Below the pieces are notes generated by a model. That model was not told the origin of the DNA, did not search any database, and was given only the letters and a program-made list of their open reading frames with translations. A stretch of 64,000 nt of DNA, from NCBI GenBank assembly GCA_025964435.1, contig JAOPYV010000167.1, forward strand, positions 1,419-65,418, given 5' to 3'. Below, in pieces: positions 21,695 to 59,766 of the stretch (positions are counted from its first letter, which is position 1; each line of letters starts with the position of its first letter). The translations under genes and the position numbers were made by a program. The DNA is from Thermoleophilia bacterium (GTDB lineage: Bacteria; Actinomycetota; Thermoleophilia; Gaiellales; SKUG01).

Positions 21695-21764
21695 AGGACG
21701 TGGCCACGACCTGGGGCGTCGCTCACCTGCAGCACATCCAATGCACACATGCGACTCAGGAATT

Positions 21765-21774
21765 TTCGTACGAA
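21765..21774. promoter_or_regulatory. Perfect 10-bp palindrome TTCGTACGAA in the A/T-enriched leader of the giant gene
   Basis: Read directly from the sequence, ~40 nt upstream of ATG 21812. Confidence 0.3.
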
Positions 21775-21811
21775 CTCCGATGAAACTTCGGTGAGGATGA
21801 TCAGGGGAAGC

Positions 21812-30800: not shown

Positions 30801-33304
30801 CCGAGAGCTTCACCGGCTACGGCGTCATTCCGCCGCCGACGCTCGTCTCGCCGGCGAACAACGCGCGCATCAACACCGTTCCGCCGCTCGACTGGAACTG
30901 GCCGAGCGACGGCGGACCCGCCCCGACCGACTACGACCTCCTCGTCGACGGCATCGTGGTGACCAACGTCACCCACCCGACCTCCGTCTTCACGATCCTG
31001 GATCCGGGCGACGGCGTCCACACCTGGCAGGTCGTGCAGCACGATCCCTACACGGGTACCGTCAGCAGCGTCACGCGGACGTTCACCCTGGATCGCACGG
31101 CGCCGACCAACACCGGCCCGCTGACCCGCGTCGTCACCACCATCTCGTGGCCCGCCGTGAGCGACCCGGTCGTGCCCGTGGCCACCGGCATCGACCGCCA
31201 GGAGTTCTGGATCGACAACGGCGGCGGCCCGACCCTCGCCGCGACCCTCGGCGCCGCTGCGACGTCGTACGACTACGGCGTGCTGCCCGATGGCATCTAC
31301 ACGATGTTCGTGCGCGCCTTCGACAACGCTGGCAACTCGACCGACACCGCGCCGATCGTCATCACGAATGACTCGGTGCCGCCGACGGCGTTCACGCTCA
31401 CGGCGCCCGGCGCGCTGCCCGCGCTGCCGGCGATCACCGTCGGCCCGAACACGCCGCCCAGCTGCGAGACCACACCGACCTACCTGTCGGCGACGCCGAC
31501 CTTCGCCTGGTCCGCATCGAGCGACGCCACCAGTGGCCTCGCGGGCTACGACATCTACATCGACGGCGGGCTCGTCACCACGGTCGGCGCCGGCGTGACC
31601 AGCTACGTGGTCGCCACGCCGCTGTCGGCAGGCGCCCACACCTGGCACGTCGAAGCTCGCGACAACTTCGGCCTCTCCCGCAGCTCCACACCTGCCCCGA
31701 TGAACGTTCGGATCGATGCCGCATCGCCCACCGCGACGCAGGTCGCCCCGGCGAACGCATCCTTCACCGGCAACGCCACGCCGAGCCTGTCGTGGACCGC
31801 GGGTGACGACAACTGTGCAGCCCGGACCGAGCTGACCGTCGATGGCACGGTCATCGGAACCTTCGCGCCGACGACGAACTCCTGGTCGCCGACCGTTGCG
31901 CTCGCCGATGGCGCGCACACGTGGTCGATCCGCGTGTTCGACAGCGCCGGCAACATCACATCGAGCGGTGCGGCACGCACCTTCACCGTCGACACGACGC
32001 CGCCGTCCGCCATCACCGCCGTCTCGCCCGTCAACGCAGGCAGCATCAACGAGGGCATGCTGACCTTCGACTGGACCGACGGGACCGACACCGGTTCGGG
32101 CGTCAGTCGCTACGACATCGCCGTCGACGGCGTGCCCGTCCAGTCGAACCTGAGCGCCTCGACGCATGGCACGGTCGCCATCCACGCCGGCGTGCACACG
32201 TGGAGCATCCGCGCCTACGACGCCGTCGGGAACTTCGCCGACTTCACGTTCAGCTTCACGGCGCTGGCGGTTCCCGATGTCACGGCCCCGAACGCCTTCG
32301 ACCTGCTGACCCCGACCAATGGCGCCGCGATCACCGCCGGCACGGCGCTCTCATGGTCGCCTGCCTGGGACTTCTACGGAATCGCGAGCTACCGCATCTA
32401 CATCGACGGCCAGCTCTCCGGCACCGTGGCTGGCAACGTCACGAGCTTCACGCCGACCGTCGGCGTGGGCTCGCCGATCTGCTCCGTCGACTACGACCCG
32501 AGCGTCACGGCCGCCTGCATCACGGGCCAGACCTTCACCAACGGTGAGGTCGCCGGCGGACTGTCGACGCCGCCCGCCGTACCGTCCTCGAGCTGGAATG
32601 CCGCCGCCCAGGCCGGCTGGAGCGCCGCCGGCAACGCCTATGGCGTCGGCGATGCGGCCGTCACGCCCATCACCGCGGCAGCCGCTGGCTTCGATGGCGA
32701 CCGCATGTGGACCGCAATGGAGTACACCTCCAGCGTTCCCGCTGGTGGCGCCGACCTGCGCTTCGAACATCGCTACCGCTTCCACCGCCAGGGCGAGACG
32801 GTCCATGATGGCGGCACCGTCGAGCTGATGATCGATGACGCGGGCGACGGCTTCGGCAACGATACGTGGGAGACGACCTGCACCTACGGCGCACACGATA
32901 CGTACGGCGCTTCGGTGGCGTGTGACCACGAGGTCGTCGAGGCGGACGGCGGCTACGACGCAGTCTTCGCCGGGCCGGCAGCCAACCATCCGCTCGCGCA
33001 CCAGAACGGCTTCTCCGGCAGCCCCACCACGACGCAGCAGACCAAGATCCGGCTCTCGGAGTTCGCGGGCAAGGATATCCGCTTCCGCTTCCGCATCGGC
33101 ATGGATTCCTGCTACTCGGGCCAGGCGGCGTTCCGTGACGCGTACTGTCAGCCGCCGTTCGGCCGTGCCGTCTGGCGCATCGACAACGTGACGATGGCGA
33201 ACCCGTCGCTGCTGCCGGGCGCGCACACCTGGAACGTGCAGGCCGTCGACCCGTCGGGCAACGCGAGGACCTCGAACCAGACCTGGAACTTCAACCTGTC
33301 GTGA
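21812..33304 (+). CDS. Giant secreted multi-domain surface or adhesin-like protein (~3,830 aa)
   Basis: An uninterrupted 11.5-kb ORF with high GC3. Layout: signal peptide (MRHRRSTGRWVMGAIGAALMLLLISIPVLA), Lys/Pro/Ala-rich linker, PA14 domain, more than 25 Ig/FN3-like modules, and a C-terminal jelly-roll-like domain. Start is uncertain (21749-21845). Confidence 0.9.
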   Translation: MRHRRSTGRWVMGAIGAALMLLLISIPVLANGAGSKAKPASPAKATKPAACSTKSAAYRAAKPVKRGSKAKPVKPPRVCRTPLPPSAKFLPSFVPSTVAAELGKREKNGGQHGWAKLGASLGSTSSFTGPKGKVGVRLLGAPSATRTDFENGAAYVTKSYTAVQVFEGTSFKESIVVPKRLGARNWSWKLTLPKGRVPTVLANGGVDLGVGLFIPAPVITRADGTTIKTGSAWAVRADGTLTLRLNDKSFPTPYIIDPGVVPEVAFTGFSGVSANTYIDPAYALTRIYYNASQSGTFTANAAVHDPDTATPVDVCYPAYGAGWTSDGGCVPGSAGVPQGGILATYYSGSTSGSTYPGSAFTTNNNGANCANNSAGAVGPFSRIEQGINSYSNWGTAGVNDDAPYAELCADSFSGRWRGAIRTGATGGMHLFGAISDDGIRVTINGTRILSEWSEHTPAWHTSCPITLTANTTYPIEVEYFENNSSNRAQLRWWTLGSGNGPGGTANCLNPGDPIRTWIRTTAAGSTPWAPINETGVNATNGTAPTNWPIIPAGSTTTPGLHMPSNTFARTYSWTPTAAAPSPVTQNIVARDEDPDPDPGTTPFTAIADGVGPTGGTISISAPLNGGTYAATTGVTLNFNANGTTDGTPGLVSGMKPQNGEIHRQETTYANGACGAWPTTWTIGPGVTSAGSSIAPTANVSNDATRVGGLSNGKCYRWAVSFEDNVSNWGASTPTPALMIDTVAPPVAPVTFTEVTNPAWMHVSGSTLYYNGNTGNTGTFTVDVAASDPVSGVESVTYPGFATWPTGTAAAADAVAPYSRTYGWNDASSEPGTGLKTVVQDVATNVRDSNLFSVVRDVTAPAAATITYTNGMYGSSSHTVGFNRGNDGTGSGLATWHVERRSTPMVAGGVCDPYSTPWALDGVVDPTGTSYVSTGMVAGNCYQWQVVSTDNVGNVTTVASANELKYDDVAPAASFAGIVGVTGNAWRQPLTNTIWFNNSTAGGFRAQVVATDSLGVSGVNFPATGAAGWAGPTPTFDATGVANVFESAPYTWAAGAADPATITSVATDAAGNAANVTWDINLDTTAPAGGTLTLPSPIQQSLTIPITITVPTDAGSGIATWIVEMQSGTLSNGACSAYGGYTTVQSGTGTPPTSLNMVVAGSGCYLARLVTTDNVGNVNPAGAASPTPARVDQSAPTVAVTGPPDNSAQGGTFTISGTGSEPHSALTNVSVTYTGASTGTACASATLTPGAPGAWTWTCAWTTPPTDGIYTLTVTGTDSAGNASTATWHYLIDNVAPLASFTSWTETSAYLHAPGGADSDLLWYNPSAPAAGSGTVTATVTATDAGAGMDRVDFPGLGAAGWSGSGSDTTVAAGDLWSWNYAFTGGGAIGNPAPNNAVARDLAGATTGSPALDFRIEPDSTPPVGSTHSAFGGLQSATTLTSTLAVGTDAASGVARYAFELNFAPLEDGVCGAWDGWAPGGGSYASTANDGDVITFTHTINDPNGDGIPDWRDSFCMQARVNVFDNVGNVVQVPPNGIVRIDLADPTVAITTPASGTSQSGTFNVAGTADDDYVGTAPEYPLTGSGIDYVTVTYSGPATGTICATAPVTGPWTGHGWSCPWVTSALPDGLYTVTARSRDRSGRLSTISTSTYTLDNQAPIINFHSWLEGLGGGQMHAVGNVAWINPSAPAASYELDARVTATDAGSGVASVSFPAFGAGWTPSTAGNATLTSPLPVANAYTRPFTFSSGGSLATPGSLVATATDGAGNTATTPFEVRFDGAAPTGAATSVVSGLQNTASVAVTISPGVEGALESGLATWMLQYDMAPLANDTCGAFANSWGVVANGVGIAPAAINHDVTLLGSQCYRYRLRVVDNVGNGVDSAPSTNARRVDLVAPTVATLNPVSGSAHSGTFTVSGTATDAHSGIDHVRLTYLGGGGGTICDPATLAGTSPNWTFSCSWNTSALPDGPYTIRAVSFDRAGTPSAPVDIVVNLDNQPPFIGFYSFTETSPYTHWAGPVGTNQQIWFNPGAPAGSHSFDVNVTATDLGSGVDRVEFDGAGTGWTPGAVVASDASSAATPVADSYTATYTFDTTVPGLVDPPTLKATAFDPAGNPGVSTFEVVADTTAPTAGSIGYSNGFVPSTNVSVSIDTGGDGAGSGIKSWQLLRSDGTLSASSCIGWGAFTTSVATGTGAYVGSQSDTVTDPGCFRYELRVWDNVHNLVTWTSPNEIMVDLAPPTGTIVLAPATSPANQYLATPTRLYVNTSAGHSGTFTASVNASAASGVLDVNFPALAAGFSGDGTMPGPGPNFVRTYTWVAGASNPPAGTVATVQSNSLGSTGLPFDVVADPTAPSGGTTTYTSGFTAATTASISYTIGTDAGAGIAGHQLQREAGTLAAGVCTWSNTWTNAGAANGPLTYNDPVLAHASCYRYRVEVTDRVGNVGTTTPGLPIMVDTTAPTGATLVFVEDATDFASTHVPSGSTIYYRNGAGTVGSPENFWMEVRAIDAESGTGTVSFPVLAGNWSASAATPVAGGSRVSYGRWTTALEPGVVTAIVPNGSGLTTTITGNILADTSVSSAANWSIDYTHGFNTSTSIVVNWVDDLTDDRSGFATTTLHRRAYPFNVGTTLCDQSGFTDSSLGLVTGTTLTDASLVRPTCYRYWLAITDNVGNTAAIHPTTGGTTPPLFDTAWPTWDWKTTAAVDDIYPPAAFALTLPTNPVLPVITTAAAAPSCETVPTFGSSTPGFGWSASSDAQSGLDRYDVYVDGTGTVDAAVAAPGTSWTPPVLGDGAHTLGVRALDVQGNFTNAGPAFPANIRIDAAAPTATLSTPANGGWTSDTTPTLTWSAADANCLARVEVYVDNLVTPVAIASGSETSWTPTGALAEGLHSWRVEAVDAFGRRTSSPTSSFGVDTIAPAAFTLVAPTAGTTVRGFIDVTWTASSDGGSGLSGTSAYQVLIDGIVRTTVGSAITTANIAGITSGIHSVEVRAVDLVGNATLTATESFTGYGVIPPPTLVSPANNARINTVPPLDWNWPSDGGPAPTDYDLLVDGIVVTNVTHPTSVFTILDPGDGVHTWQVVQHDPYTGTVSSVTRTFTLDRTAPTNTGPLTRVVTTISWPAVSDPVVPVATGIDRQEFWIDNGGGPTLAATLGAAATSYDYGVLPDGIYTMFVRAFDNAGNSTDTAPIVITNDSVPPTAFTLTAPGALPALPAITVGPNTPPSCETTPTYLSATPTFAWSASSDATSGLAGYDIYIDGGLVTTVGAGVTSYVVATPLSAGAHTWHVEARDNFGLSRSSTPAPMNVRIDAASPTATQVAPANASFTGNATPSLSWTAGDDNCAARTELTVDGTVIGTFAPTTNSWSPTVALADGAHTWSIRVFDSAGNITSSGAARTFTVDTTPPSAITAVSPVNAGSINEGMLTFDWTDGTDTGSGVSRYDIAVDGVPVQSNLSASTHGTVAIHAGVHTWSIRAYDAVGNFADFTFSFTALAVPDVTAPNAFDLLTPTNGAAITAGTALSWSPAWDFYGIASYRIYIDGQLSGTVAGNVTSFTPTVGVGSPICSVDYDPSVTAACITGQTFTNGEVAGGLSTPPAVPSSSWNAAAQAGWSAAGNAYGVGDAAVTPITAAAAGFDGDRMWTAMEYTSSVPAGGADLRFEHRYRFHRQGETVHDGGTVELMIDDAGDGFGNDTWETTCTYGAHDTYGASVACDHEVVEADGGYDAVFAGPAANHPLAHQNGFSGSPTTTQQTKIRLSEFAGKDIRFRFRIGMDSCYSGQAAFRDAYCQPPFGRAVWRIDNVTMANPSLLPGAHTWNVQAVDPSGNARTSNQTWNFNLS
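22826..23294 (+). other. PA14 domain within the giant protein
   Basis: GILATYYSGS...FSGRWRGAIRTGATGGMHLFGAISDDGIRVTINGTRIL...TYPIEVEYFENNSSNRAQLRWW matches the PA14 pattern (YY, F..RW.G, DDG.rv.ing, Y.i.veY.e). Confidence 0.8.
24029..29900 (+). repeat. Divergent protein-level super-repeats inside the giant gene (A-B and A-B-C domain units)
   Basis: Units begin with D-x-x-A/P-P at nt 24029, 24707, 25685, 26771, 27788, 28502 and 29162. Three full A-B-C triads lie at 24707-25684, 25685-26770 and 26771-27787. A is xWxNPSAPA...VTATDxGSGVxxVxFP, B is SGxAxW...CGAW...DNVGNV, and C is APTVA...SGTFxxxGTAxD...WxCxWxTSALPDGxYT. Confidence 0.75.
29905..32270 (+). repeat. Two paralogous ~0.9-kb three-domain blocks in the giant gene (29905-30830 and 31370-32270)
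   Basis: The blocks are collinear at roughly 40-50% identity by eye. Examples: PSCETVPTFGSSTPGFGWSASSDAQSGLDRYDVYVDG vs PSCETTPTYLSATPTFAWSASSDATSGLAGYDIYIDG; IDAAAPTATLSTPANGGWTSDTTPTLTWSAADANC vs IDAASPTATQVAPANASFTGNATPSLSWTAGDDNC. Confidence 0.75.
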
Positions 33305-35937: not shown

Positions 35938-37926
35938 CTAGCGACGGTGCGCGGCACTCGAATCGCGATCACGGGATGCAGCACGCATCGACCCGGTCCA
36001 GGTCGCCAGCTCGATCGCGAAGCACGTCACGCCCTCCAGCTCGCCGTCGGCTTCGGCGCCGGCAACTGCAGCGTTCAGCTCGATCCGGCCGCCCATCGCC
36101 TCGACCAGACGCCGCGCCGAGTACAGGCCCATTCCGGCGCCGCCGACCGCACTGCGCATCTCCGGGTCGAGACGGTGGAAGGGCTCGAAGATCGCATCCT
36201 GCTGCTGGACCGGGATGCCGGGTCCGTGGTCGCTCACTGAGATGCGCGCGTTGGCGCCCTCGGTGCGCACCGCGACCTCCACCGGCGCGTGTCCATACTT
36301 GATCGCGTTGTCGATGAGCGCGCAGAGCGCGCGGACCAGCGCCCGCCGGTCAGCACGCAGCACGACGCCATGGTCCGGGGCATCGACGATGACCTCGTTG
36401 CCGGCATCGCCGAGCGATTCGAGTGCTGATGCGATCGCGTCCACGGCCTCGACCGGCTCCGGTGTCACCGACACCTTGTCGCGCGCCAACAGCGAGCTCT
36501 CGAAGAGCGAGTCCACGACGTCGTCGAGCCGCTGCGCATCCAGCAGGAGCTGCTCGATCGACTGGCGCCGCAGCTCATCCGACAGCGGGAGCGTGGGATC
36601 AGCGAGCGTGGAGGCGAATCCGAGGATCGATGTCAGTGGCGTGCGCAGCTCGTGCGCTGCGGTGACCAGGAAGTTGGTGCGTGCCTGCTCGATCGACAGC
36701 GAGGGCGCGGCGTCGCGGAAGACCTGGAGGATGCCGCCGCCCTTCATCCGACGGACCGACAGGTCGACGGCAAGGTGCGCGGTGCCACCGGCGAGCGGCA
36801 GCAGGATGCGGCGACGCCCCGGTCGGCGCTGGGATGCCAGCAGCTCCGCCGTCGGCGCCCCGGACCTCGCGTCCGCGATGTCGACGCCGGTGATCCGTGC
36901 CGCGCCGGCGTTCCACGTCGCTATCCGGCCCGATTCGTCCCACGCACACACGCCATCGTCGATCGACGAGAGGGTTCGGTCGAGTTGATCGACGGCGCGC
37001 TCGAGGGTGCCGATCCGAACCTGCAGCTCGCCCGCGAGGTCATTGAGGCTCGTCGCGACGCGCGCGCCGGCATCCGAGCCGGCGACCGGCATGCGAATGT
37101 CGAAGTCGCCGCTCGACATGCGTTCCGCGCTCGCCGCGAAGGTGCGCAGCATCCGATTCATGATGAGCGCCACCGCGACACCGCCGAGCATCCCGGCGGC
37201 CAGCAGGAACAGCACGGCGAGCCGCAGCTCGCCGCCTCGTCCGTGCAGCAGCAGCGCCATGGGGGTCCCGTCCATCGCTGCGACCAGCTGGATCTGGCGG
37301 GACGAGTCGATCGTCACCGTCCGCCACCGCGTCGGCGCTTCGGGCGTGAATCGTGGGGCCGACCCGGCAAGCTGCGCCGACCAGTCGCCGGCGACGTCGC
37401 CCCCGACCGGACGCGTCGTCATGTCGGGCCGGAGCACCGCAAGTCCCACGCCGAGGTCGCGTGCGGCCCGCCCGAGCAGCTCGTTGGTGGCACCCGGCTG
37501 CTGCACGGCGATCTCCATGCCAGCCTCCGGGTCACGAAGCTCGAGGTAGCCCGAGATCGGGTCGTCGCCCGTGCGATCCGCACCGAGCTCGCGGACCTCG
37601 ACGTCGAGCTCGTCGTCGCCTTCGCCTCCGGCGTCCGCCCAGGCACGCTGCACCAGCTCGACCAGCTCCACGTCGTCGGCCCCTGAACGCGCCGCAGTGC
37701 GTGCCTCCGCTGCGCTGCTGGCAAGCGCGAACTCGATGGTCGCGCGCCGCGACTGCACCTGCGCCGAGGCCCGGGCGAGCGCCTGGTCGAGGTCCGGGTC
37801 CACCTGCCGGGCAGCGATCCGCTCCGGCACGGCAAGGAGGATCGCCCCGCCCACGATGAAGGGGAGGAGGGCACTTGCCACGCCGGCGAGGGCGAGGCGC
37901 GAGGTCAGGCCAAGTCGAATCTTCAC
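35938..37926 (-). CDS. Membrane sensor histidine kinase (TM-HAMP-PAS-HisKA-HATPase), orphan
   Basis: H-box TAAHELRTPLTSILGF. ATPase boxes LIDNAIKYG and GAGMGLYSARRLV. Two TM segments. Start set to GTG 37926 (VKIRLG); the 39 codons upstream in the track ORF are low-complexity. Confidence 0.85.
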   Translation of the reverse strand: MKIRLGLTSRLALAGVASALLPFIVGGAILLAVPERIAARQVDPDLDQALARASAQVQSRRATIEFALASSAAEARTAARSGADDVELVELVQRAWADAGGEGDDELDVEVRELGADRTGDDPISGYLELRDPEAGMEIAVQQPGATNELLGRAARDLGVGLAVLRPDMTTRPVGGDVAGDWSAQLAGSAPRFTPEAPTRWRTVTIDSSRQIQLVAAMDGTPMALLLHGRGGELRLAVLFLLAAGMLGGVAVALIMNRMLRTFAASAERMSSGDFDIRMPVAGSDAGARVATSLNDLAGELQVRIGTLERAVDQLDRTLSSIDDGVCAWDESGRIATWNAGAARITGVDIADARSGAPTAELLASQRRPGRRRILLPLAGGTAHLAVDLSVRRMKGGGILQVFRDAAPSLSIEQARTNFLVTAAHELRTPLTSILGFASTLADPTLPLSDELRRQSIEQLLLDAQRLDDVVDSLFESSLLARDKVSVTPEPVEAVDAIASALESLGDAGNEVIVDAPDHGVVLRADRRALVRALCALIDNAIKYGHAPVEVAVRTEGANARISVSDHGPGIPVQQQDAIFEPFHRLDPEMRSAVGGAGMGLYSARRLVEAMGGRIELNAAVAGAEADGELEGVTCFAIELATWTGSMRAASRDRDSSAAHRR

Positions 37927-37942
37927 GTCAGTGGCACCTGGC

Positions 37943-38713
37943 TCAGGGCCCTGCACCTGACACGCTGAGCAGGTCACCGACACCGGGAACCGACACGGTG
38001 ACGCTGTGCTCGCCGACGATGACCTGGGCCGTGAGCTCGCCACTGGTGAGTGGATCCAGCAGGGGCACGGTCACGAGCGGACGCGACGTCGCGCTGAACA
38101 CGCTGATCGACGTGCCGTCCCCGAGCGTCGCGCTGGCGCTCCCCGGTGCAACGGCGACGCTGCCGAGCGGCGACGCCACGGTCGCCGCAGGCGGGCGGAC
38201 GGTGACCACGCTGCCGGTCGGCGGGGTGACCGCGGGCGGCTTGGGCGTGACGACGGTTCCAGTGCCACCGGTCGGCGGCTGGACCACGGGATTCGTCGGG
38301 GTCGGAGCCGTCGGCGTCGGCTGGGGAGTTCCGCGACCTGAGCTTCCGGTCGTTCCGGTGTTCCGAGTGCCGCTCGTCGACGGGATGGGCGACGTGGGAC
38401 GGGCGGGGGTTGCCGCCGGCGCGACGGGGTCGGCCGACACGATGGTCTTGGCGATGCGGCCGAACACGGTGTCATCGGCGGACGCGTCCTCGGGCGAGCC
38501 GAGCTCCAGGCCACGGACGATCGACTGGCCGGGCGCACCCGGGCTCGAGGTCGGCGGTCGCCACGCGAGCAGGATGATCGCAGCAGCAGCACAGGCCATG
38601 GCAACGCCGAGCAGGGCGAGCCATGAACGACCCGCCACTACCGATCCAAGTCGCATGCGCACCGCGCCGACCACTGCCCGCTCCCCCCAACTCCTCCTCA
38701 TACGTACGCGCAC
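37943..38713 (-). CDS. Membrane-anchored Pro/Thr-rich hypothetical protein
   Basis: One TM (WLALLGVAMACAAAAIILLAW) followed by a PT-rich extended region. It ends 16 nt upstream of the kinase start. Confidence 0.55.
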   Translation of the reverse strand: MRVRMRRSWGERAVVGAVRMRLGSVVAGRSWLALLGVAMACAAAAIILLAWRPPTSSPGAPGQSIVRGLELGSPEDASADDTVFGRIAKTIVSADPVAPAATPARPTSPIPSTSGTRNTGTTGSSGRGTPQPTPTAPTPTNPVVQPPTGGTGTVVTPKPPAVTPPTGSVVTVRPPAATVASPLGSVAVAPGSASATLGDGTSISVFSATSRPLVTVPLLDPLTSGELTAQVIVGEHSVTVSVPGVGDLLSVSGAGP

Positions 38714-52120: not shown

Positions 52121-53038
52121 TCAGGCTGCAACGGCAGCAGGAGCGGCAGCGGGCAGCGCCGCGTCGAGCCCCGTCGTTCGCAGCGCCGCGATCATCGCGG
52201 CCGGCGCCGTGCCACCCATCGCGGCTGCAGCTCGCGTCAGTGCGCTCGCGAGCGTTGCCCACGTTCCGCCCTGGCGCCACGCCGTCGCATCGCGGATGAC
52301 TCGCCACAGCAGCGCCTCGGCCTGGTCTCGGCCCAGCGTGCGGCGCAGCAGGATGAAGGTCTCGGAGACGACGCCGCCTGCTGCGTGCACCTCGGCGCCC
52401 TTGGCGCTGGCTTCACGGTAGCGGCGGATCGTCGGTCCCAGCGGCATGCCGCTGATACGCGGCGAGCCGAGCTCGCGGATCGCGCCCTGGTGCCGTCCGT
52501 CTGGACCCAACGCGAAGAACTCTTCACCGAGCGTGTCGTCATTCGTGGCGAGCAGGGCAGCCGCATCGGCGATGCCCTCGAGGATCGCGCCGTTCGGCTT
52601 CGCGTTGGTCGCCATCCTGCCGAACTGGACGACGTGGACGAGCTCGTGGATCGCGGAGTCGACGGTGAGCAGGATCCCGGCGCGCCCACGGCTGCCTGCG
52701 TCCTTGGCAAGTGCATTCCTCGTACCGACCGCCAGCGAGCCGGTCGTGGCCCATGGGCCGTTCGCCGTCGCGTCGGAGTCGCGCAGGATGAGCTTCACGG
52801 CGGTGCCGGCGTCATCGATCCCGGCCAGCCCGACCCGCTCGCGCAGGAGCTGGACCGCGCGCACCAGCGCATCGATCGCCGCGCGCTCCGCCATCGTCAG
52901 GCGCACACTGGCGCGTGCCGCGCCGGCGGTGCCGAGATGGACGTCCGCTGCGCCGTTGCGGCCACGCAGCACGACCTGGATGCGTCGCGCATCGAGCGTC
53001 GAGCCGACGGGCAGTGCGGATGAGACGGGGGCAGTCAC
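52121..53038 (-). CDS. Compact thermolysin-like (M4-type) metallopeptidase with no signal peptide or propeptide
   Basis: HELVHVV (HExxH), GAILEGIADAAA (third-ligand Glu motif GxxNEaxSD), LGEEF, and VHAAGGVVSETF (thermolysin VHxNSGIxNkAf). Only ~135 aa precede the HExxH. Confidence 0.65.
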   Translation of the reverse strand: MTAPVSSALPVGSTLDARRIQVVLRGRNGAADVHLGTAGAARASVRLTMAERAAIDALVRAVQLLRERVGLAGIDDAGTAVKLILRDSDATANGPWATTGSLAVGTRNALAKDAGSRGRAGILLTVDSAIHELVHVVQFGRMATNAKPNGAILEGIADAAALLATNDDTLGEEFFALGPDGRHQGAIRELGSPRISGMPLGPTIRRYREASAKGAEVHAAGGVVSETFILLRRTLGRDQAEALLWRVIRDATAWRQGGTWATLASALTRAAAAMGGTAPAAMIAALRTTGLDAALPAAAPAAVAA

Positions 53039-53147: not shown

Positions 53148-53825
53148 ATGTCGTCCGACCTTGCCATCTCTGCCACCGGCCTCAGCCGAACGTTCCGCGT
53201 CCCTGTGCGCGAGGCGGGCCTGCGCGCGTCGCTTCGCTCCGTGGTGCGCCGCACGTATCGCGACGTCCACGCGGTCCGAGGCATCGACCTCGCGATCGCA
53301 CCGGGCGAGATCGTCGGCTTCCTCGGTCCGAACGGCGCCGGCAAGACGACGACCCTCAAGATGCTCAGCGGATTGATGCATCCCACGAGCGGCACGGCCC
53401 GCGTCCTGGGCGTCGACCCGGCTCGCCGCTCACGCGACTTCCTGACCAGCATCTCCTTCGTCATGGGCCAGCGCCAGCAGCTGACGAGCGAGCTGCCAGC
53501 AGCCGACTCGCTCGAGGTGCTGCGAGCGACGTATCGGATCTCGCGGCCGGCGTTCCGTGAGCAGCTCGACGAGTTGACCGAGCTCCTTGACCTCGCCCCC
53601 TTGCTCGACAAGCCGGTCCGCCAGCTCTCGCTCGGCGAGCGCATGAAGTGCGAGCTGGCCGCCGCGCTGATCCATCGGCCGACCATGCTCTTCCTCGATG
53701 AGCCGACCCTCGGACTCGACGTCCAGGCCCAGCGGCGCGTGCGCGAGTTCGTCGCCAGCTACGCGAAGCGCAGCGGTGCGACGGTGCTGCTGCAGGTCAG
53801 ACCCCCCAGCCGTGGCGCCTGCTGA
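53148..53825 (+). pseudogene. ABC transporter ATPase truncated before the H-loop (COG4586-like)
   Basis: Walker [10 protein letters not shown], signature LSLGERMK and Walker B MLFLDEPTLGLD are intact. After SGATVLL (nt ~53794) the frame reads QVRPPSRGAC-stop instead of the expected TSH... H-loop and C-terminal ~90 aa. Confidence 0.7.
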
Positions 53826-54262
53826 ACCTCGCCGCCGGGCTGACGCTCATTGCGATCGGGGTGTCCAACCAAGGCTTCGACGAGGTCTCGGGCGGGGCTG
53901 TCGGTGCACTGCTCGCCGCCGTCACGATGCTCGCCTGCTCGATCTGCATCGTCACCGGCTTCTGGGCGCTGATGGCCAGCATCACCTTCTGGACGATCGA
54001 GGGCGAGGGCATCCTCTGGGCCCTCGATGACATGTACGACCACCTGCGTTGGCCGCTCCAGATCTTCCCACCGGGCCTGCGGATGGCGCTCTCGACGGTC
54101 TACCCCGCCGGGTTCGCCATCACGGTGCCCGCATCAGCGCTGACCGGCCGCCTCGGACTGTCGACGGCGCTCATCGCGTGCGCCACGGCAGCAGCGTTCC
54201 TCATCGCGGCACGACTGGTGTGGCGGGTTGCGATCCGTCGCTACGAGGGCGCGAACAGCTGA
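53810..54262 (+). pseudogene. C-terminal fragment of an ABC-2-type permease (partner of the truncated ATPase)
   Basis: The frame of track ORF 53861..54262 is already permease-like from ~53810 (PWRLLNLAAGLTLIAIG...FWTIEGEGILW...YPAGFAITVPASALTG...RRYEGANS). No N-terminal TM helices and no plausible start context. Confidence 0.6.
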
Positions 54263-54266
54263 CGAG

Positions 54267-55415
54267 TCAGGCAGCAGCTGAGCGGTCACTGCAGCGCGGG
54301 CACTCGACGTGGCAGCCGGGCTCCATCCACTCGCTCTCCATCGTGCGGATGTCGAGCTCGAACTCGCGGCCGAGCATGGAGGACTGATGGATGCCGGCGA
54401 GCAGGCCGATCGCCTGGCCAGCGCACATCGATGCCGCAGTGACGTCGGCCCAGCCGACAGCCGGAAGCGCGGGTGGCTCCTCGTTGCGGCGGATGCCGAC
54501 CTCCGCCTCGAGCTCCTCGGAGCCGGGTGCGATACGACTCGCGTAGAAGCATGCGTAGCAGCTCGTCACGCCGGGAACGAGCAGCGGCCCCGCGTAGGCA
54601 AAGGGTGGGCGGGAGCCGCCGTGAAGCACCGGGACGCCGAGCGCGAAGGCACCCGCGTCGACCCACTCCTTGATCGCCAGTGGCGGGCGGTCGGCGGCAC
54701 AGACCACGAGGTCCGGCTGGACACGCCGCACGAGCTTGGCGACGTCCTCCGCGCAGGTGATCTCCTGGTCGATCGCGGTGAAGTTCGAATCCGGCGCGAT
54801 CTGCTCGAGATGCATCGCTGCAGCGAACACCTTGCGGACACCGATGTCACGATCGGTGTACAGCAGCTGGCGCGGCAGGTTCTGCTCCTCGACGCGATCG
54901 AAGTCGGTCAGCGCGATGCTGCCGACACCCGCACGCGCGAGCAGCTCGGCGAAGGGCGCGCCAAAGCCTCCGACGCCGAGCATGAGCACGGTCGACATGG
55001 CGAGGCGACGCTGGGCAGCGGGACCGTCGACGCCCTCCTGTGCAAACCAACGGACCTGGCGATCGAAGCGCTCGACGTCGACCGCTGCGACCTGGTCGGC
55101 CGGCAGCAGCACGCGACGGACCGCGAGGTAGCGGATCGTCTCGTCGAAGGTGGGGCGATCGAGCGGCGTGACGCACTGCTCGACCGGGACCCCCCGCACG
55201 ACAACGTCATGCACCATGCGCCCCCAGGGGCTGTCGACCTGCAGCTGCTCACGCCCGCGTACCGGGATCAGCAGGAGCGTCCCGTCGTCGAGCAACACGG
55301 ATTCCGTGGAAGGGCAGGTGACATAGCTGGGACCAGCGCCGGGAACCTCCGTGGGGAAGGCGGCGCGGCGAGGCAGGGACATGTCCGTGTGTCGTGCGGT
55401 GGGCGTATCCGGCAT
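54267..55415 (-). CDS. ThiF/E1-superfamily adenylyltransferase with an N-terminal ~130-aa extension (MccB/PaaA-like architecture)
   Basis: Nucleotide-binding signature LMLGVGGFGAPFAELLARAGVGSIALTDFDRVEEQNLPRQ. VVCAADRPP. Two CxxC pairs (CYAC and CPRC) ~80 aa apart, as in the MccB Zn site. 382 aa. Confidence 0.85.
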   Translation of the reverse strand: MPDTPTARHTDMSLPRRAAFPTEVPGAGPSYVTCPSTESVLLDDGTLLLIPVRGREQLQVDSPWGRMVHDVVVRGVPVEQCVTPLDRPTFDETIRYLAVRRVLLPADQVAAVDVERFDRQVRWFAQEGVDGPAAQRRLAMSTVLMLGVGGFGAPFAELLARAGVGSIALTDFDRVEEQNLPRQLLYTDRDIGVRKVFAAAMHLEQIAPDSNFTAIDQEITCAEDVAKLVRRVQPDLVVCAADRPPLAIKEWVDAGAFALGVPVLHGGSRPPFAYAGPLLVPGVTSCYACFYASRIAPGSEELEAEVGIRRNEEPPALPAVGWADVTAASMCAGQAIGLLAGIHQSSMLGREFELDIRTMESEWMEPGCHVECPRCSDRSAAA

Positions 55416-55418
55416 GAC

Positions 55419-55496
55419 TTAGGCCTTGCTGATCGGCTGGACGGGTGTACGGACCGGACCAACCGGAATTCCTGATCGCGCTGCGCCTCGCACCAT
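55419..55496 (-). CDS. Candidate small peptide gene (25 aa MVRGAARSGIPVGPVRTPVQPISKA; an in-frame upstream ATG at 55571 would give 50 aa)
   Basis: Not in the supplied track (below the size cutoff). GGGGG lies 5 nt upstream of ATG 55496. The TAA stop is 3 nt before the E1 ATG. GC3 is only moderate, so the coding status is unproven. Confidence 0.3.
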   Translation of the reverse strand: MVRGAARSGIPVGPVRTPVQPISKA

Positions 55497-55593
55497 GCTT
55501 GCCCCCTGCTCACTCGAGTGCCCGCATTGGAGATAGGACGGCGGGCACGCCCACAGCCTCGGAGAGGCCATGTTGAGGGGGTCGGCGCAGCGC

Positions 55594-55630
55594 CTGTCAG
55601 TAACCTGTCACCGCGTGATCGACAGTGATC
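55594..55630 (-). promoter_or_regulatory. Four helically phased hexamers (GATCAC, GATCAC, TGACAG, TGACAG; spacing 10/10/11 nt) upstream of the small ORF-E1 operon
   Basis: The minus strand reads cctGATCACtgtcGATCACgcggTGACAGgttacTGACAGgcg. It overlaps the stop codon of the SARP gene. Confidence 0.5.
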
Positions 55631-57773
55631 AGGTGCCGGGTTCGACGAGCTCGGCGTGCCGGCGCACGAGGGCCAGCGAGGGCGTCAGACCAACGGCGCT
55701 CTGCAGCGCTTCACGGTAGCGATGGAAGGCTGTGGAGCCGTCGGCGAGCCGACCAGCTCGGACGTGCAGCTCGATCTCGCAGGCAGCGACCTGCTCGTCG
55801 AGCGGGTCGAGCCGGACCAGCGCCGCTGCCAGCGTGAGCAGCACCTGGGGGACGTCGACGTGCGCCTCGCTGGACGGGGCTGCCGCCGCGATCCATGCGC
55901 GAAGGACCGCCAACGACGTCTCGACGATCTCGTCGCGCAGGCGACGCTGCCACGTCACGATGATCTCGTCGCCACCGAGGCCTGCCAGGGGAATGCCATC
56001 GGCGAGCGGCACCAGTCGCGTGGCACACGCGACGCTGCCCGCTGCATTGCGAGGATCAAGGGCTGCGACATCTGCCGCGATCCTGCGCAGGTCGCCCACG
56101 TCCGAGCTGTCGCCCTCCGCGAGCACCAGCTCGACCATCAGGTCGCGCGCAGCAACGCTGCGCAGCTCCGTCCCGTCGCCAGCATCGGCACCCAGCACCG
56201 TACGCACGACGCTCAGCACGGTCGAGAGCCGCGCCGAGGCCTGGGCCTGGGTCATGTCGATGCCGTACCAGAGACCTTCGACGAGCACGCCGCGCTCGAT
56301 GCGCCCGCCGCTGGCGACGAGGACGGCCAACACCACGCGCGCCTTGCGCCGCTTGCTCCACAGCGCAGGATCGACGGGCTCGCCGTCGACCAGCACGCGC
56401 AGTCCGCCCAGCACCTCGATACGCACCGACGGAACACGCACCGGCGCCGCGCCTCGCGTGGTCTCGTCCAGGATCTGCCACGGATCCGCGTCCTGGGCAC
56501 CCAGCTCGAACCCCTGCTCCAGGAGCTCGGCACGCGAACGTTCGAGCACGGCCGCCTCACCGAGCACGTGCCCCACGAGCAGCCCACCAAGCGCGGCATA
56601 GACCGGCAGCGCCGCGCGATGTTCCATCGTCAGGGTCGCCAGCTCCGCCGCGAGCTCCCGAGCCCGCGGGACGTTCCCGGCCAGCTGCATGCCCAACACG
56701 GCGAAGTAGATCCAGATCAGTCGCTGCTCCGCATCGGGGGTTCGCTCCCCGAGCAACACTCGCCCGCGCCGGATCGCCGCTTCGACGGCAGGCGTGTCGG
56801 CAGCGATCGCCTCGACGAGCATCAGTGCTGGAAGCGTTGCGCTCAGCTCCAGCGACGACGTGTCGGATTCGGCGCGGGTGGCCAGGGCGAGCTCGGCTCG
56901 GGCGGCGTCGACGCTGCCCAGCACGGCGTGGGCGAGTCCTTCCACGCCATGGAGCCATGCCTCGTACTCGGCCGAGACGACGAGCTGGCCGCGCGTGCGT
57001 GCGATCACGTCGAGTGCAGCCTGTGGTCGGCCGATCAGGATCTGGAAGAAGGCGAGCTCGAGCGTCACGTCGATGAGCAGCAGGCGGCCCACGGAACCGC
57101 GCATCGCTGCGATGCCCGCATGGACCCGCTCCAGCACGAACACCGCTCGACCGGGCTGTCCACCCGACAGCATGAGGTAGCTCCGGGCCCACTGGAACTC
57201 GACGAGCCATCGGGTCTGCGCGGACGTGACGACATCCGGATGTTCAAGCGCGCGCGCCCAGAGCAGGCCCGCCTCAGCCAGCTCGCCGGCTCGCTCTGCC
57301 ATCGTCGCGAAGGTGGCCAGCAGCCTGGGTGGCGCAGGCACATCCGCGTGCCGCTGCAGGATGATGCGCGCCGCATGCCAACCCTTCGCGGCCTCGGACT
57401 CATGCAGCACCCAGGCATTCCACAGTGCGGCGGACTGGTCCGCCCACAGCAGGTTGCCGCGGTGCATGCACGCATCGAGGGCCTCGAGGAAGTTCGCACC
57501 GAGATCCGGTGCCAGCCCGTCGTGCTGCACCTGTCGCGCCACGGCGTGCAGGCAGAGTCGGATCGGGTGCGCGCCGGCCTCGATCATCGGCCGCGGCGTA
57601 TCCGCCAACAGTCGCGCCAAGGGTGGGTCCGTGGCCTGCGCGAGCAGCTCGGTCGCGATGTCCTCGTCCAGCTCGAATGCCGCGATCGCTGCATCGTCGC
57701 CGGTGAGGACGGCCGCGAACGGACCATCCAGTGGCGGGACTGACACGACATCGGTGGCGGGGTTCGGGGTCAT
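55629..57773 (-). CDS. SARP-type regulator with inverted domain order (N-terminal helical/TPR-like region; C-terminal OmpR-type wHTH plus BTAD)
   Basis: The C-terminal ~260 aa read IEVLGGLRVLVDGEPVDPALWSKRRKARVVLAVLVASGG...LSTVLSVVRTVLG (wHTH), then ...LDPLDEQVAACEIELHVRAGRLADGSTAFHRYREALQSAVGLTPS (BTAD). The N-terminal ~450 aa are Leu/Ala-rich helical repeats. No P-loop was seen. Confidence 0.8.
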   Translation of the reverse strand: MTPNPATDVVSVPPLDGPFAAVLTGDDAAIAAFELDEDIATELLAQATDPPLARLLADTPRPMIEAGAHPIRLCLHAVARQVQHDGLAPDLGANFLEALDACMHRGNLLWADQSAALWNAWVLHESEAAKGWHAARIILQRHADVPAPPRLLATFATMAERAGELAEAGLLWARALEHPDVVTSAQTRWLVEFQWARSYLMLSGGQPGRAVFVLERVHAGIAAMRGSVGRLLLIDVTLELAFFQILIGRPQAALDVIARTRGQLVVSAEYEAWLHGVEGLAHAVLGSVDAARAELALATRAESDTSSLELSATLPALMLVEAIAADTPAVEAAIRRGRVLLGERTPDAEQRLIWIYFAVLGMQLAGNVPRARELAAELATLTMEHRAALPVYAALGGLLVGHVLGEAAVLERSRAELLEQGFELGAQDADPWQILDETTRGAAPVRVPSVRIEVLGGLRVLVDGEPVDPALWSKRRKARVVLAVLVASGGRIERGVLVEGLWYGIDMTQAQASARLSTVLSVVRTVLGADAGDGTELRSVAARDLMVELVLAEGDSSDVGDLRRIAADVAALDPRNAAGSVACATRLVPLADGIPLAGLGGDEIIVTWQRRLRDEIVETSLAVLRAWIAAAAPSSEAHVDVPQVLLTLAAALVRLDPLDEQVAACEIELHVRAGRLADGSTAFHRYREALQSAVGLTPSLALVRRHAELVEPGT

Positions 57774-57873
57774 GGAGATACCTGCACGTCGGCGAGACTG
57801 CTACATAAGGGTACGATATGGAGTCCCGTCGGGCGGCGTGGCGCAGCCGATGGCCCCCTCCGGCCCGCGCCGC

Positions 57874-57900
57874 TGACAGACACTGACAGGTTAGTGACAG
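57874..57900 (+). promoter_or_regulatory. Three phased TGACAG direct repeats (spacing 10 and 11 nt) in the divergent region upstream of 57923
   Basis: cgcTGACAGacacTGACAGgttagTGACAGcac. The core TGACAGGTTA(C/G)TGACAG is shared with the site at 55594-55610. Confidence 0.5.
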
Positions 57901-57922
57901 CACGCTCGCCCACGCTGGGTCC

Positions 57923-58195
57923 ATGAGTGATCGCGAGCGACATACCTTCGTGGCCCCCGCCAGCGACGACGGCGAGCACACGGGCATGTCGGCCGAGGAG
58001 TGGCAGACCTGCTCCAAGATCTTCACCGAGGGCCGGCGCATGCGCACGCTCGCTGCGGAGCTTCGCGGACTCGAGGGCCCGCGACTCAACCCCACGGCAC
58101 GCATCGCGCTCGACGAGTACATCCGTGGGATGGAGCGCGCTGGCGCGCTGGGCGACATCGCCGCCGAGGCCCTGGTCGCACGGGGCAGCCGCTGA
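57923..58195 (+). CDS. Hypothetical 90-aa helical protein
   Basis: High GC3. No recognisable motif. First gene of a plus-strand run downstream of the TGACAG repeats. Confidence 0.65.
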   Translation: MSDRERHTFVAPASDDGEHTGMSAEEWQTCSKIFTEGRRMRTLAAELRGLEGPRLNPTARIALDEYIRGMERAGALGDIAAEALVARGSR

Positions 58196-58234
58196 CGCAC
58201 GCATGGGAGCGCGGCACACGGGGAACGCTCCAGT

Positions 58235-58729
58235 GTGGCCGCAGCTCCCGACAACGACGACTTCTTCCAGCAGCCCGCAGATGCGGGCACCGTCGACGCG
58301 ACCCACTCCGAGGTCGCCACCGCGCCGCCGCGGCTCGGCGTGCTGGCGGAGCTGTCGGTCGAGGAGTTCGATTCCGTGGCCCGCTCGGCGCAGCTGACCT
58401 TCGTCGTGCCCGGCGGCACGATCTGCAGCCAGGGCGACCAGGCCGACCGCTTCTTCATCGTCGTCGACGGGACGGTCGAGGTCGAGCGCGATGGCGAGCT
58501 GCTGGCCACGCTGGCCGATGGCGCCTTCTTCGGGGAGAGCGCGTTGCTCGTCGGCGGGCGCCGCTCGGCGACGGTCCGGGCCCTCACGCCCTGCTCGATC
58601 TGGTCGATCGACTACGCCGCCTTCGACGCGGCGGTCGCCCACCACCTGCTCGCCGACGACGAGCACGGGCCCGAGGCCGCACGCCGTATCGATGCGACGC
58701 CGCCGACCGCCTTCGACGAACCCACCTAG
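58235..58729 (+). CDS. Stand-alone cyclic-nucleotide-binding (cNMP/Crp effector) domain protein
   Basis: FFIVVDGTVEVERDGELLATLADGAFFGESALLVGGRRSATVRA matches the cNMP phosphate-binding cassette (FGE..ll....R.ATv.A). No DNA-binding or other output domain. GTG start. Confidence 0.8.
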   Translation: MAAAPDNDDFFQQPADAGTVDATHSEVATAPPRLGVLAELSVEEFDSVARSAQLTFVVPGGTICSQGDQADRFFIVVDGTVEVERDGELLATLADGAFFGESALLVGGRRSATVRALTPCSIWSIDYAAFDAAVAHHLLADDEHGPEAARRIDATPPTAFDEPT

Positions 58730-58777
58730 GCCGCTGGCCGCTTTCGGCCGAAGTGCCTGCGTGCTGCAACAGCCGGG

Positions 58778-59383
58778 GTGCGTGGCCCGATGCAGCAGGC
58801 GATGAGCAGAATCCCCCGCCGCCACCGTCCATCCGCCCTGGATGGCTATAGCCGCCTCGCCCGCACCGGCACTGTCGTGGCCAGCTCGAGCGAACCGTCG
58901 ACACCCGACCTGCGCGATTCGGTCGCCCAGCGTCGCCGTCGCCGTGGTGGCTGGCGCTTTGCCGGCGGCCTGCGCTTCCTCGGGCTCGCAGCCGTCCTGG
59001 TGCTGATCGTCGGCGCCTCTGTCGGCCTGGCCAGCGCCGATCCGCGCGGCGCGCGCACGTCGACCGCAGCGGCAACGCACGAGAAGACGACGCCCGTCGT
59101 TCGCGACGCGGTCGATGCGATCGATTCGATCGAGACACGGGCGGCGGCCGAGAAGCCGAAGGACCCGACGGCGACCGAGCGGGTCGCATCGACGACCGTC
59201 GCTTCTGCCGTGCCCGAGGCTGATGCCATCGTCGCACCAGCCAACGCGCAGCTGCCGGTCACCGGCGACCGGACGATCGAGATGTTCGTCCTCGCAGGAG
59301 CGACGCTGGTCCTGATGGGCATGGCGCTGCAGATCGCCGGGCAGCCGCTGCCCGCACGCGCACGAGCGCGCCGCTCTGCCTGA
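58778..59383 (+). CDS. LPXTG-anchored surface protein (hypothetical)
   Basis: The C-terminus has LPVTGD, a hydrophobic stretch (MFVLAGATLVLMGMAL) and a basic tail (RARARRSA). The N-terminus has RRRRR plus a TM/signal. The start is uncertain. Confidence 0.7.
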   Translation: MRGPMQQAMSRIPRRHRPSALDGYSRLARTGTVVASSSEPSTPDLRDSVAQRRRRRGGWRFAGGLRFLGLAAVLVLIVGASVGLASADPRGARTSTAAATHEKTTPVVRDAVDAIDSIETRAAAEKPKDPTATERVASTTVASAVPEADAIVAPANAQLPVTGDRTIEMFVLAGATLVLMGMALQIAGQPLPARARARRSA

Positions 59384-59460
59384 GCCAGCTGCCCTGAACC
59401 GGATGCGCGCGCCTGCTCGATAGTCCGGTGGACGCGCGAACGGGACGAAGGGCGGACACG

Positions 59461-59766
59461 ATGCAGGCAGGATCACTCGCGAGCTGGGGCCAGCGCGCCG
59501 CCTTCCTCGGTGGCGCAACCGTCGTCGGCGGCCTCGCGCTGCCGGTCTCCGCGGCATTCCTCGACGGCCCGTCGACGGAGCACCTGATCAAGCCCGTGCA
59601 GTTCGGCGCGACCACGGCCATCGGCATCGGCGTCGGCGCTGCTGTCACCGGCATCGGCCTCGGCGGCGCTCACGCGCGAGCCAGCGCAATGGCGATCGGT
59701 GGAGCACTCGGCCTCGCCGGCGCCGCGATCGCCAACCAGGTCTGGGAGAACGTGCTGCTCGGCTAG
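59461..59766 (+). CDS. Small Gly-zipper membrane protein (hypothetical)
   Basis: GAAGGG lies 8 nt upstream of ATG 59461. Three Gly/Ala-rich hydrophobic segments. Its stop shares the CTAG tetranucleotide with the convergent HNH gene stop. Confidence 0.5.
   Translation: MQAGSLASWGQRAAFLGGATVVGGLALPVSAAFLDGPSTEHLIKPVQFGATTAIGIGVGAAVTGIGLGGAHARASAMAIGGALGLAGAAIANQVWENVLLG

Follow-up and report, generated by a model that had tools for sequence, protein, structure and literature searches.

We found that a pair of TGACAG hexamers, lying between the gene for a 714-aa regulator and a small peptide-ThiF operon in a Thermoleophilia genome, is very probably the core of a conserved 22-bp tandem-repeat box that acts as a functional cis-element in the promoter. 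To judge from the sequence, the protein that binds the box is most likely (probability about 0.7) the adjacent SARP-like regulator; it would thereby activate the peptide-ThiF operon and, through a second copy of the box (box B), a unit that begins with a 90-aa gene. The window, that is, the whole stretch of 64,000 nucleotides (64 kb) that was analysed, contains the following elements in and around the two boxes:

55629-57773, minus strand: gene for the 714-aa regulator, with a TPR-like alpha-solenoid (aa ~18-419), a linker and a C-terminal SARP module (wHTH + BTAD, aa ~446-714)
55630-55625 and 55620-55615, minus strand: the two GATCAC copies, an n4-spaced pair spanning 55615-55630, present here and not conserved
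55610-55605 and 55599-55594, minus strand: the two TGACAG copies of box A, n5-spaced
55600-55610, minus strand: distal 11-bp unit of box A (TGACAGGTTAC), kept in the orthologous loci in the anchored alignment
55589-55599, minus strand: proximal 11-bp unit of box A (TGACAGGCGCT), from the anchored alignment
57874-57905, plus strand: box B, made up of TGACAGacac (a 10-nt third unit), TGACAGGTTAG and TGACAGCACGC, pointing toward the 90-aa gene; the same arrangement occurs in locus L004

Housekeeping genes, e.g. those for Lon, isocitrate dehydrogenase and GreA, surround the locus.

The motif TGACAG-n5-TGACAG has exactly two perfect matches in the 64 kb, and both adjoin the regulator gene. The 17-mer of box A, TGACAGGTTA(C/G)TGACAG, recurs once, as TGACAGGTTAGTGACAG at 57884-57900 on the plus strand, with 16 of 17 positions identical, where the number of near-matches (<=1 mismatch) expected by chance is ~0. 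Both boxes read 5'-TGACAGGT-3' toward their downstream gene. Box B is sited in the divergent region upstream of the regulator start codon (57773), carries its extra TGACAG 10 nt further up (57874) and ends 22 nt before ATG 57923 of the 90-aa gene, the same distance as separates box A from ATG 55571. Two other interpretations of the repeats were discarded: boxes A and B are not the inverted terminal repeats of a mobile element around the regulator, as their similarity ends at 17-18 nt and synteny is conserved, nor are they a CRP-type palindrome for the neighbouring cNMP-binding protein, since the repeats are direct and that protein lacks a DNA-binding domain.

A preliminary description of this DNA had reported four helically phased hexamers, and its letters and hexamer spacing proved exact when the minus strand was re-read: 55630-55594 is GATCAC-tgtc-GATCAC-gcgg-TGACAG-gttac-TGACAG, with hexamer starts 10, 10 and 11 nt apart. 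The TGA stop codon of the regulator (55631-55629) shares bases with the first GATCAC; from the end of the last TGACAG it is 22 nt to ATG 55571 and 98 nt to ATG 55496. The four-hexamer pattern alone is not significant, since the X-X-Y-Y arrangement, which is unique to this array in the window, is expected 0.31 times per 64 kb and was seen in 20% of simulations; exact hexamer repeats at a 10- or 11-nt offset number 50 in the 64-kb window against ~94 in first-order Markov simulations. Matches to GATCAC-n4-GATCAC (<=2 mismatches) showed no excess over shuffles (7 against 8.6 expected). The GATCAC pair is missing in all nine relatives whose sequence covers the position (the contig of L007 starts inside the box), and the 24 nt upstream of the distal repeat, comprising the second GATCAC and part of the first, show no conservation in an anchored alignment of 12 sites. 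We regard the GATCAC pair as probably incidental and outside the conserved element; given its absence from the relatives, the site is better described as a two-unit box, with three units in some sites, than as the single array of four that had been proposed.

Conservation of the TGACAG pair was followed through ten further distinct loci, retrieved by exact-protein look-ups of ThiF homologs, making 11 loci with the window, all of them metagenome-derived. The regulator lies directly upstream of ThiF in each of the ten, and a tandem repeat of 11-bp period stands between the regulator stop codon and the peptide/ThiF gene in 11 of 11 loci, over ThiF identities to the window from 93% down to 46%:

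Window: two units TGACAGGTnnn
L007 (ThiF identity 93%): hexamer TGACAG
L092 (67%): TGACAGgtgggTGGCAT, hexamer TGACAG
L003 (66%): TGAGACgttatTGGAAC, degenerate TGAGAC/TGGAAC
L004 (62%): TGACAGgtcgcTGACAG, hexamer TGACAG
L088 (62%): cGCAAGgttccTGAAAG, TGAAAG-type
L089 (61%): TGACAGcatcgTGACAGgtcacTGACAG, three units, hexamer TGACAG
L095 (56%): TGAAAGgcaacTGAAAG, TGAAAG-type
L090 (48%): TGCAAGgtcgcTGCAAG, TGCAAG-type
L093 and L094 (both 46%): TGCAAC-n5-TGCAAC

In each locus the locus-specific repeat pair (<=1 mismatch) is confined to these promoters, and L004 resembles the window in having a second box, placed 22 nt ahead of the ATG of the 90-aa homolog. The TGA stop codon of the regulator is at the same time the TGA of the distal repeat in L004 and L095. 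Within the unit, T1, G2 and A5 are most conserved over the 12 aligned sites and G7-T8 mainly in the distal unit; the 3' end is unconstrained (the last ~3 bases, with positions 9-10 free), so that direct repeats 11 bp apart are built of ~8 conserved and then ~3 free bases, as in SARP boxes. The preliminary description had named conservation of the repeats alongside the gene pair as a check on them; the TGACAG-type tandem repeat withstands it in all 11 loci and the GATCAC pair does not. L088 has a further candidate, TGCAAC-n5-TGCAAC, some 240 nt ahead of a gene for a membrane protein, but it lacks the -10 geometry described below and was left uncounted. One additional locus, kept outside the DNA-level counts, has the same regulator-ThiF gene pair. 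A contig scan of genomes with the ThiF protein gave one distant Prevotella match only, and a metagenome contig scan with the ThiF alignment, whose patterns were too generic, returned only relatives of <=49% identity over short segments.

Comparison of the sites also revealed the probable layout of the promoter and the leader, for which we list the following elements:

55578-55583, minus strand: -10-like hexamer of box A, GACCCC, weak, with no T at -7; A 55582 is the invariant A
57911-57916, plus strand: -10-like hexamer of box B, CACGCT (CAAGCT in L004)
55571, minus strand: predicted (unmapped) start of transcription, which falls on the A of ATG 55571, the 23rd nt past the box
55553-55571, minus strand: first leader hairpin, an 8-bp stem with a 3-nt loop (AUGGCCUC-ucc-GAGGCUGU), at the predicted mRNA 5' end
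55518-55548, minus strand: second leader hairpin (GUGCCCGC...GCGGGCAC), present in seven of eight leaders with compensatory changes

Ten nucleotides after the proximal hexamer, every one of the 12 sites has a -10-like hexamer whose second base is an invariant A, 12 nt past the box. The preliminary description had seen no convincing -10 here: the copy in the window, GACCCC, is indeed poor, but the element becomes recognisable by comparison across the relatives, where it takes the form GAnnnT (GACACT, GACAGT, GATGCT, GATCAT and GATGAT). Three genes, namely the 90-aa gene in the window, its counterpart in L004 and ThiF in L095, have their ATG exactly 23 nt after the box and no Shine-Dalgarno sequence, and in the other loci the leader hairpin begins at that same nucleotide. 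From the fixed distance of the three ATGs and the onset of the hairpin we infer that transcription starts at nt 23, and the 90-aa gene, given the position of its ATG and its lack of a Shine-Dalgarno sequence, is probably leaderless. Counted from this predicted start, the box would span about -39 to -18 and overlap the -35 region, and 8 bp separate the end of the 8-bp core TGACAGGT from the -10-like hexamer, both -10 and start being placed by conservation and the fixed-distance ATGs. The earlier suggestion that ATG 55571 may be excluded from the transcript is probably not correct, as this ATG most likely provides the first transcribed base and is buried in the conserved 5' hairpin.

Scanning 55300-58000 for sigma-70-type promoter and terminator consensus sequences and searching the same segment against Rfam found nothing; a missing sigma-70-type -35/-10 is what would be expected of an activator-dependent promoter. 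A reading of TGACA itself as a -35 hexamer (TTGACA-like) was discarded: it would put a spacer of 11 or 22 nt in front of the conserved -10, and the likeness is lost in the TGCAAC and TGAAAG variants. An ECF-type promoter (GGAAC...CGT) was dropped as well, its spacing of 9 or 20 nt being wrong.

An 8-bp stem with a 3-5-nt loop starts from the predicted +1 in eight loci. In the seven loci compared in register, 56 of 56 stem cells are paired, a percentage biased upward because the stems were chosen by hairpin search (the counts were scripted in register, as MAFFT misaligned the hairpins). Each position shows 2-5 pair types, with many compensatory changes, and when an arm of one locus is set against that of another, only 4.4 of 8 positions pair. 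By chance one would not expect every locus to have a perfect 8-bp stem at the same fixed position, and our preferred reading of the first hairpin is a putative 5' stabilising stem-loop.

The genes downstream of the two boxes are as follows:

55419-55496, minus strand: gene of the 25-aa peptide (MVRGAARSGIPVGPVRTPVQPISKA); a GGGGG ribosome-binding site stands 6-7 nt before it; 24-25 aa across orthologs
54267-55415, minus strand: ThiF-family adenylyltransferase, MccB-like, 382 aa, starting 3 nt after the peptide stop codon (PF00899, E = 4e-40)
57923-58195, plus strand: 90-aa gene whose ATG falls on nt 23 after box B; its homolog in L004 (45% identity) starts at an equal distance from the box
58235-58729, plus strand: cNMP-binding protein, 164 aa, no HTH, downstream in the box-B unit
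58778-59383, plus strand: membrane protein, 201 aa, with an LPVTG-like tail, downstream in the box-B unit

A 595-aa open reading frame on the minus strand upstream of the regulator was dismissed as a gene, being a shadow of plus-strand genes by GC3 and Pfam. As for the small gene before ThiF, the preliminary description had suggested that a 25-aa reading might be favoured, and this reading proved to be the conserved one. The motif R-x-P-x-Q-P-x-x-K-(A/T)-stop is kept in ten peptide orthologs, changes in the gene are concentrated at third codon positions, and synonymous/non-synonymous codon differences are 160/295 in frame versus 3/471 and 98/383 in the other frames. The 50-aa reading from ATG 55571 is not conserved, since in L007 the ATG is in another frame than the peptide, and in L004, L089 and others it is missing. 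On this pattern of conservation, the real small gene is that of the 25-aa peptide and not the 50-aa frame. No peptide gene was seen on the contig of L095.

The closest solved relatives of the ThiF enzyme are MccB structures (PDB 6om4, 3h5a and 3h5n; E ~ 1e-35), ahead of MoeB, ThiF and PaaA, and the enzyme falls under every NCBIfam equivalog cut-off. The operon thus described looks like a minimal ThiF-type RiPP cluster, in which the peptide would be the precursor for the MccB-like enzyme. Described TLAT RiPP clusters comprise the microcin C (MccA/MccB), pantocin A, GRC and enterofaecin types (PMC12250964); as in these, a short precursor gene is paired with a ThiF enzyme and exporter genes stand alongside, the minimal architecture being that of the enterofaecin clusters. 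The exporter genes beside the peptide-ThiF operon are of the ABC type. As in microcin C systems, an MccB-like adenylyltransferase is encoded beside a short precursor, but ten of ten precursors end in Lys-Ala or Lys-Thr and none in the Asn required by microcin C chemistry, so the operon is not a microcin C system. The motif R-x-P-x-Q-P-x-x-K-A matches none of the described TLAT classes (PMC12250964).

The regulator was already suspected of having a C-terminal wHTH-BTAD module, and several comparisons bear this out. The 714-aa sequence is found unchanged in NCBI as a hypothetical protein of a Thermoleophilia bacterium. Pfam finds BTAD at 24 bits, just over the 22.1-bit cut-off, and gives no match to Trans_reg_C even at E <= 5; a word-indexed search with the regulator alone retrieved only itself. 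A profile of seven regulator orthologs, however, matches EmbR (PDB 2fez) across wHTH and BTAD with E = 1.7e-11 and also picks up proteins whose annotation is SARP-family activator. For aa 446-714 the AlphaFold model (pLDDT 90.7, pTM 0.87) has the OmpR-type order beta-alpha-beta-alpha-alpha-wing followed by helices, and its best six PDB matches in Foldseek are EmbR and the AfsR SARP domain in initiation complexes (E ~ 1e-9, TM 0.67-0.72). In the full-length model (pLDDT 86.8) an N-terminal TPR-like alpha-solenoid and a disordered linker precede the SARP module, and an NB-ARC/ATPase domain is absent from the protein. By profile and predicted fold, then, the C-terminal part of the regulator is a genuine SARP module. 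This module is always N-terminal in the small, medium, large and SARP-LAL classes (PMC10972967); with its own at the C-terminus, the regulator is predicted to work like a SARP yet fits no named size class. The full-length family is small, with 19 representatives at E < 1e-30 among 1.84 billion, and other uncharacterised architectures also have C-terminal SARP modules. The recognition helix varies with the box: xT(V/L)LS goes with TGA-type hexamers and xP(L/V)(C/L)(A/S) with TGCAA-type hexamers, L088 being mixed in both. This correlation is suggestive only, since phylogeny confounds it, three of the TGCAA-type loci forming one clade of mutual closest relatives.

Could the tandem repeat be real and yet be bound by another protein, such as an OmpR/PhoB-type response regulator encoded elsewhere? 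A direct-repeat periodicity of 11 bp is a known trait of OmpR/PhoB-type wHTH proteins in general, and the window contains histidine kinase genes at 7651-8835 and 35938-38043. Against such a binder, the gene for the 714-aa regulator abuts the box in 11 of 11 loci, to the point that its stop codon lies inside the distal repeat in L004 and L095; in the loci examined, no response-regulator gene is conserved beside the cluster; and the variants of the box change together with the recognition helix of the regulator. We therefore consider binding by another protein unlikely, though it is the most credible of the alternatives. A SARP site made up of all four hexamers (GATCAC twice and TGACAG twice) on one face of the helix is a weaker candidate still. 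It would account for the exact 10/10/11-nt phasing, some SARP sites do have at least three repeats (PMC10972967), and where the second GATCAC would stand, box B and L089 have one more TGACAG unit, their third; yet GATCAC agrees with TGACAG in register at only 2 of 6 bases and occurs in no other locus that covers the position, one in five random 64-kb sequences contains such a four-hexamer pattern, and the first GATCAC falls partly within coding sequence and the stop codon.

The conserved features might instead belong to the 3' end of the regulator gene, with the hairpin at 55571-55553 serving as a terminator without a U-tract and the peptide-ThiF genes being expressed by read-through or from another start. 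There is indeed a GC-rich hairpin of 8-11 bp 57 nt after the regulator stop codon, and the scan detected no canonical promoter. We nevertheless hold this to be very improbable. It is the distance to the box, and not that to the stop codon, which stays constant: the hairpin begins 19-27 nt past the box, with its stem core at nt 22-23, while the stop codon lies at distances that vary by tens of nucleotides. The stem has no T-tract and the scan found no terminator-like site; a terminator here would moreover hit transcripts from the box promoter. In L095 the ATG of ThiF sits at the hairpin position, and a box without a hairpin precedes the 90-aa gene, where no upstream gene ends. Lastly, a chance similarity devoid of function could appeal to how often hexamer pairs occur at 10-11-nt offsets in this GC-rich DNA, but the recurrence of the 17-mer where ~0 is expected and the position-specific conservation in 11 loci, down to 46% ThiF identity, effectively refute chance, which we find scarcely credible.

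Binding by the adjacent SARP-like regulator, which we prefer, suggests the following mechanism. The C-terminal SARP modules of two molecules of the 714-aa protein would bind side by side, one per 11-bp unit, and would recruit or adapt RNA polymerase to a promoter with a weak -10 and no usable -35, in the mode solved for AfsR. Transcription would begin ~23 nt after the box, at 55571, to give a bicistronic mRNA that opens with the conserved hairpin and continues with a 75-nt leader, then the genes for the 25-aa peptide and ThiF. Box B (57874-57905, plus strand) would drive the probably leaderless 90-aa gene and the genes downstream, so that, given this second copy, the regulator would control at least two promoters flanking its own gene.

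The closest parallel is the afs box of afsS, the target of AfsR in Streptomyces coelicolor (PDB 8hvr, 8k60). In SARP targets the direct repeats recur at 11 or 22 bp, and 8 bp separate the 3' repeat from the -10; the afs box is built from two 11-bp repeats (22 bp, -40 to -19) overlapping a poor -35, each AfsR protomer contacts the first 8 bp of its unit and not the last 3, and the afsS -10, CACTGT, is suboptimal (PMC10936776). The box described here likewise has two 11-bp repeats of 8 conserved and 3 free bases, overlaps the -35 region and the spacer (about -39 to -18 from the predicted start, against -40 to -19 at afsS) and is combined with a weak -10 and no usable -35, and the DNA-binding module of the regulator has the fold of that of AfsR in the predicted model (TM about 0.7). 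The proposal of the preliminary description that SARP-like repeats of ~11 nt stand at the -35 of their target is thus in keeping with the period of the TGACAG pair, its conservation pattern and its promoter position, the latter judged from a predicted start. Unlike the afs box, the repeat has a different sequence, its start is inferred and one of its targets is probably leaderless; unlike AfsR, the regulator has its SARP module C-terminal, behind a TPR-like solenoid, and no NOD/ATPase domain, and its host is a Thermoleophilia MAG rather than Streptomyces.

The footprinted heptamers of PimR, SanG and PolR (TGGCAAG, CGGCAGG and CGGCAAG; PMC3367932) form 7+4 = 11-bp units in two or three copies, with extra units spaced at 10 bp (cf. 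box B), and their cores CGGCAAG/CGGCAGG are akin to cTGCAAG in L090, TGGCATG in L092 and TGACAGG in the window. The PimR site, however, lies 93 nt upstream of the transcription start and off the -35 (PMC3367932), whereas the box here abuts the -10; geometry alone is therefore not diagnostic of a SARP site. PimR, SanG and PolR are also N-terminal SARP-LAL proteins, unlike the regulator with its C-terminal module.

It is tempting to go further and to see in the box, the regulator of reversed architecture, the leader hairpins and the peptide-ThiF genes a self-contained, chromosomally syntenic signalling or antibiotic module of Thermoleophilia. Such a module would make an undescribed class of ThiF-dependent RiPP (precursor ...R-x-P-x-Q-P-x-x-K-A), and the solenoid would sense the peptide or its product in a feed-forward or quorum-like loop. 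We put this forward tentatively and consider it rather doubtful.

The arrangement itself is of the standard SARP-box kind, textbook for the control of actinobacterial secondary metabolites, and to that extent the surprise is modest. The novelty lies in the lineage, an uncultured actinobacterial one, in a regulator whose domain order is reversed, and in the uncharacterised pair of peptide and ThiF genes under its predicted control. The annotation is corrected in that the 25-aa peptide is recognised as a small gene, and an uncharacterised ThiF-type RiPP family is flagged. Our data further suggest that the afs-box geometry solved for AfsR may extend to a deeply divergent regulator with reversed domain order. 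They amount to a precise prediction of the regulon of a SARP-like activator that belongs not to Streptomyces but to a class of which almost all knowledge comes from metagenomes. The prediction specifies the box sequence, two target promoters, their predicted start sites and natural variants of the box paired with variants of the recognition helix.

Within the window, a conserved peptide gene is separated by 3 nt from the downstream gene for an MccB-like ThiF-family adenylyltransferase, and both lie in a region with the following features:

55629-57773 (-), regulator, with a predicted N-terminal solenoid at aa 18-419
55553-55571 (-), leader hairpin 1
55518-55548 (-), leader hairpin 2
55419-55496 (-), conserved peptide gene, 24-25 aa
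54267-55415 (-), MccB-like ThiF enzyme gene
53160-54259 (+), ABC exporter adjoining ThiF, internally deleted
52121-53038 (-), gene for a 305-aa protein that weakly matches the thermolysin-like Peptidase_M4_C

Both leader hairpins are preserved by compensatory changes across the orthologous loci, and neither matched any Rfam family. Hairpin 1 starts at what is predicted to be the first transcribed base, and it sequesters ATG 55571. In L095 (1797-1840), an orthologous locus on a 3.4-kb contig from which the peptide gene is absent, the ThiF start codon lies exactly 23 nt past the repeat box, the tandem 11-bp direct repeats that form a putative SARP site; together these suggest that the ThiF mRNA is leaderless there and that the precursor is lost or encoded elsewhere. 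An additional repeat box could be represented by TGCAACtcatcTGCAAC in another such locus, L088 (~470-501, minus strand), although the -10 geometry is missing at this site. It lies ~240 nt 5' of a gene for a membrane protein of the DG(F/Y)RRLERTR family, to which window 58778-59383 also belongs.

The first 420 residues of the regulator, modelled as a TPR-like alpha-solenoid, contain neither a Pfam match nor an ATPase domain. This sensor-like repeat comes first and the SARP module last, whereas all named SARP classes have the opposite domain order. The 595-aa ORF apparently preceding the regulator (57770-59557, minus strand; GC3 0.71, no Pfam hit) was rejected as a shadow ORF; opposite it, the plus strand carries real genes for proteins of 90, 164 and 201 aa, of which the 164-aa protein is cNMP-binding and devoid of a DNA-binding domain and the 201-aa protein ends in an LPVTG-like sorting signal. 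Elsewhere, a 3851-aa ORF with a PA14 domain (21749-33304, plus strand) shows unusual codon-position GC (GC3 0.89, GC1 0.58) and probably encodes a very large surface protein.

Relative to the orthologous locus L004, the window exporter has lost ~1.5 kb internally: ATPase residues 9-219 directly adjoin permease residues 110-266, and one entire permease gene is gone; probably it is inactive or the assembly collapsed here. The 305-aa protein, whose gene is kept alongside the ABC genes in L004 and in a further orthologous locus (L003), is a candidate for the leader peptidase that acts on the peptide.

The peptide C-terminus carries an invariant R-x-P-x-Q-P-x-x-K-A/T. A microcin C-like identity is ruled out because terminal Asn is absent, and the peptide and ThiF enzyme probably represent a family of ThiF-type RiPPs in Thermoleophilia that has not been described before.
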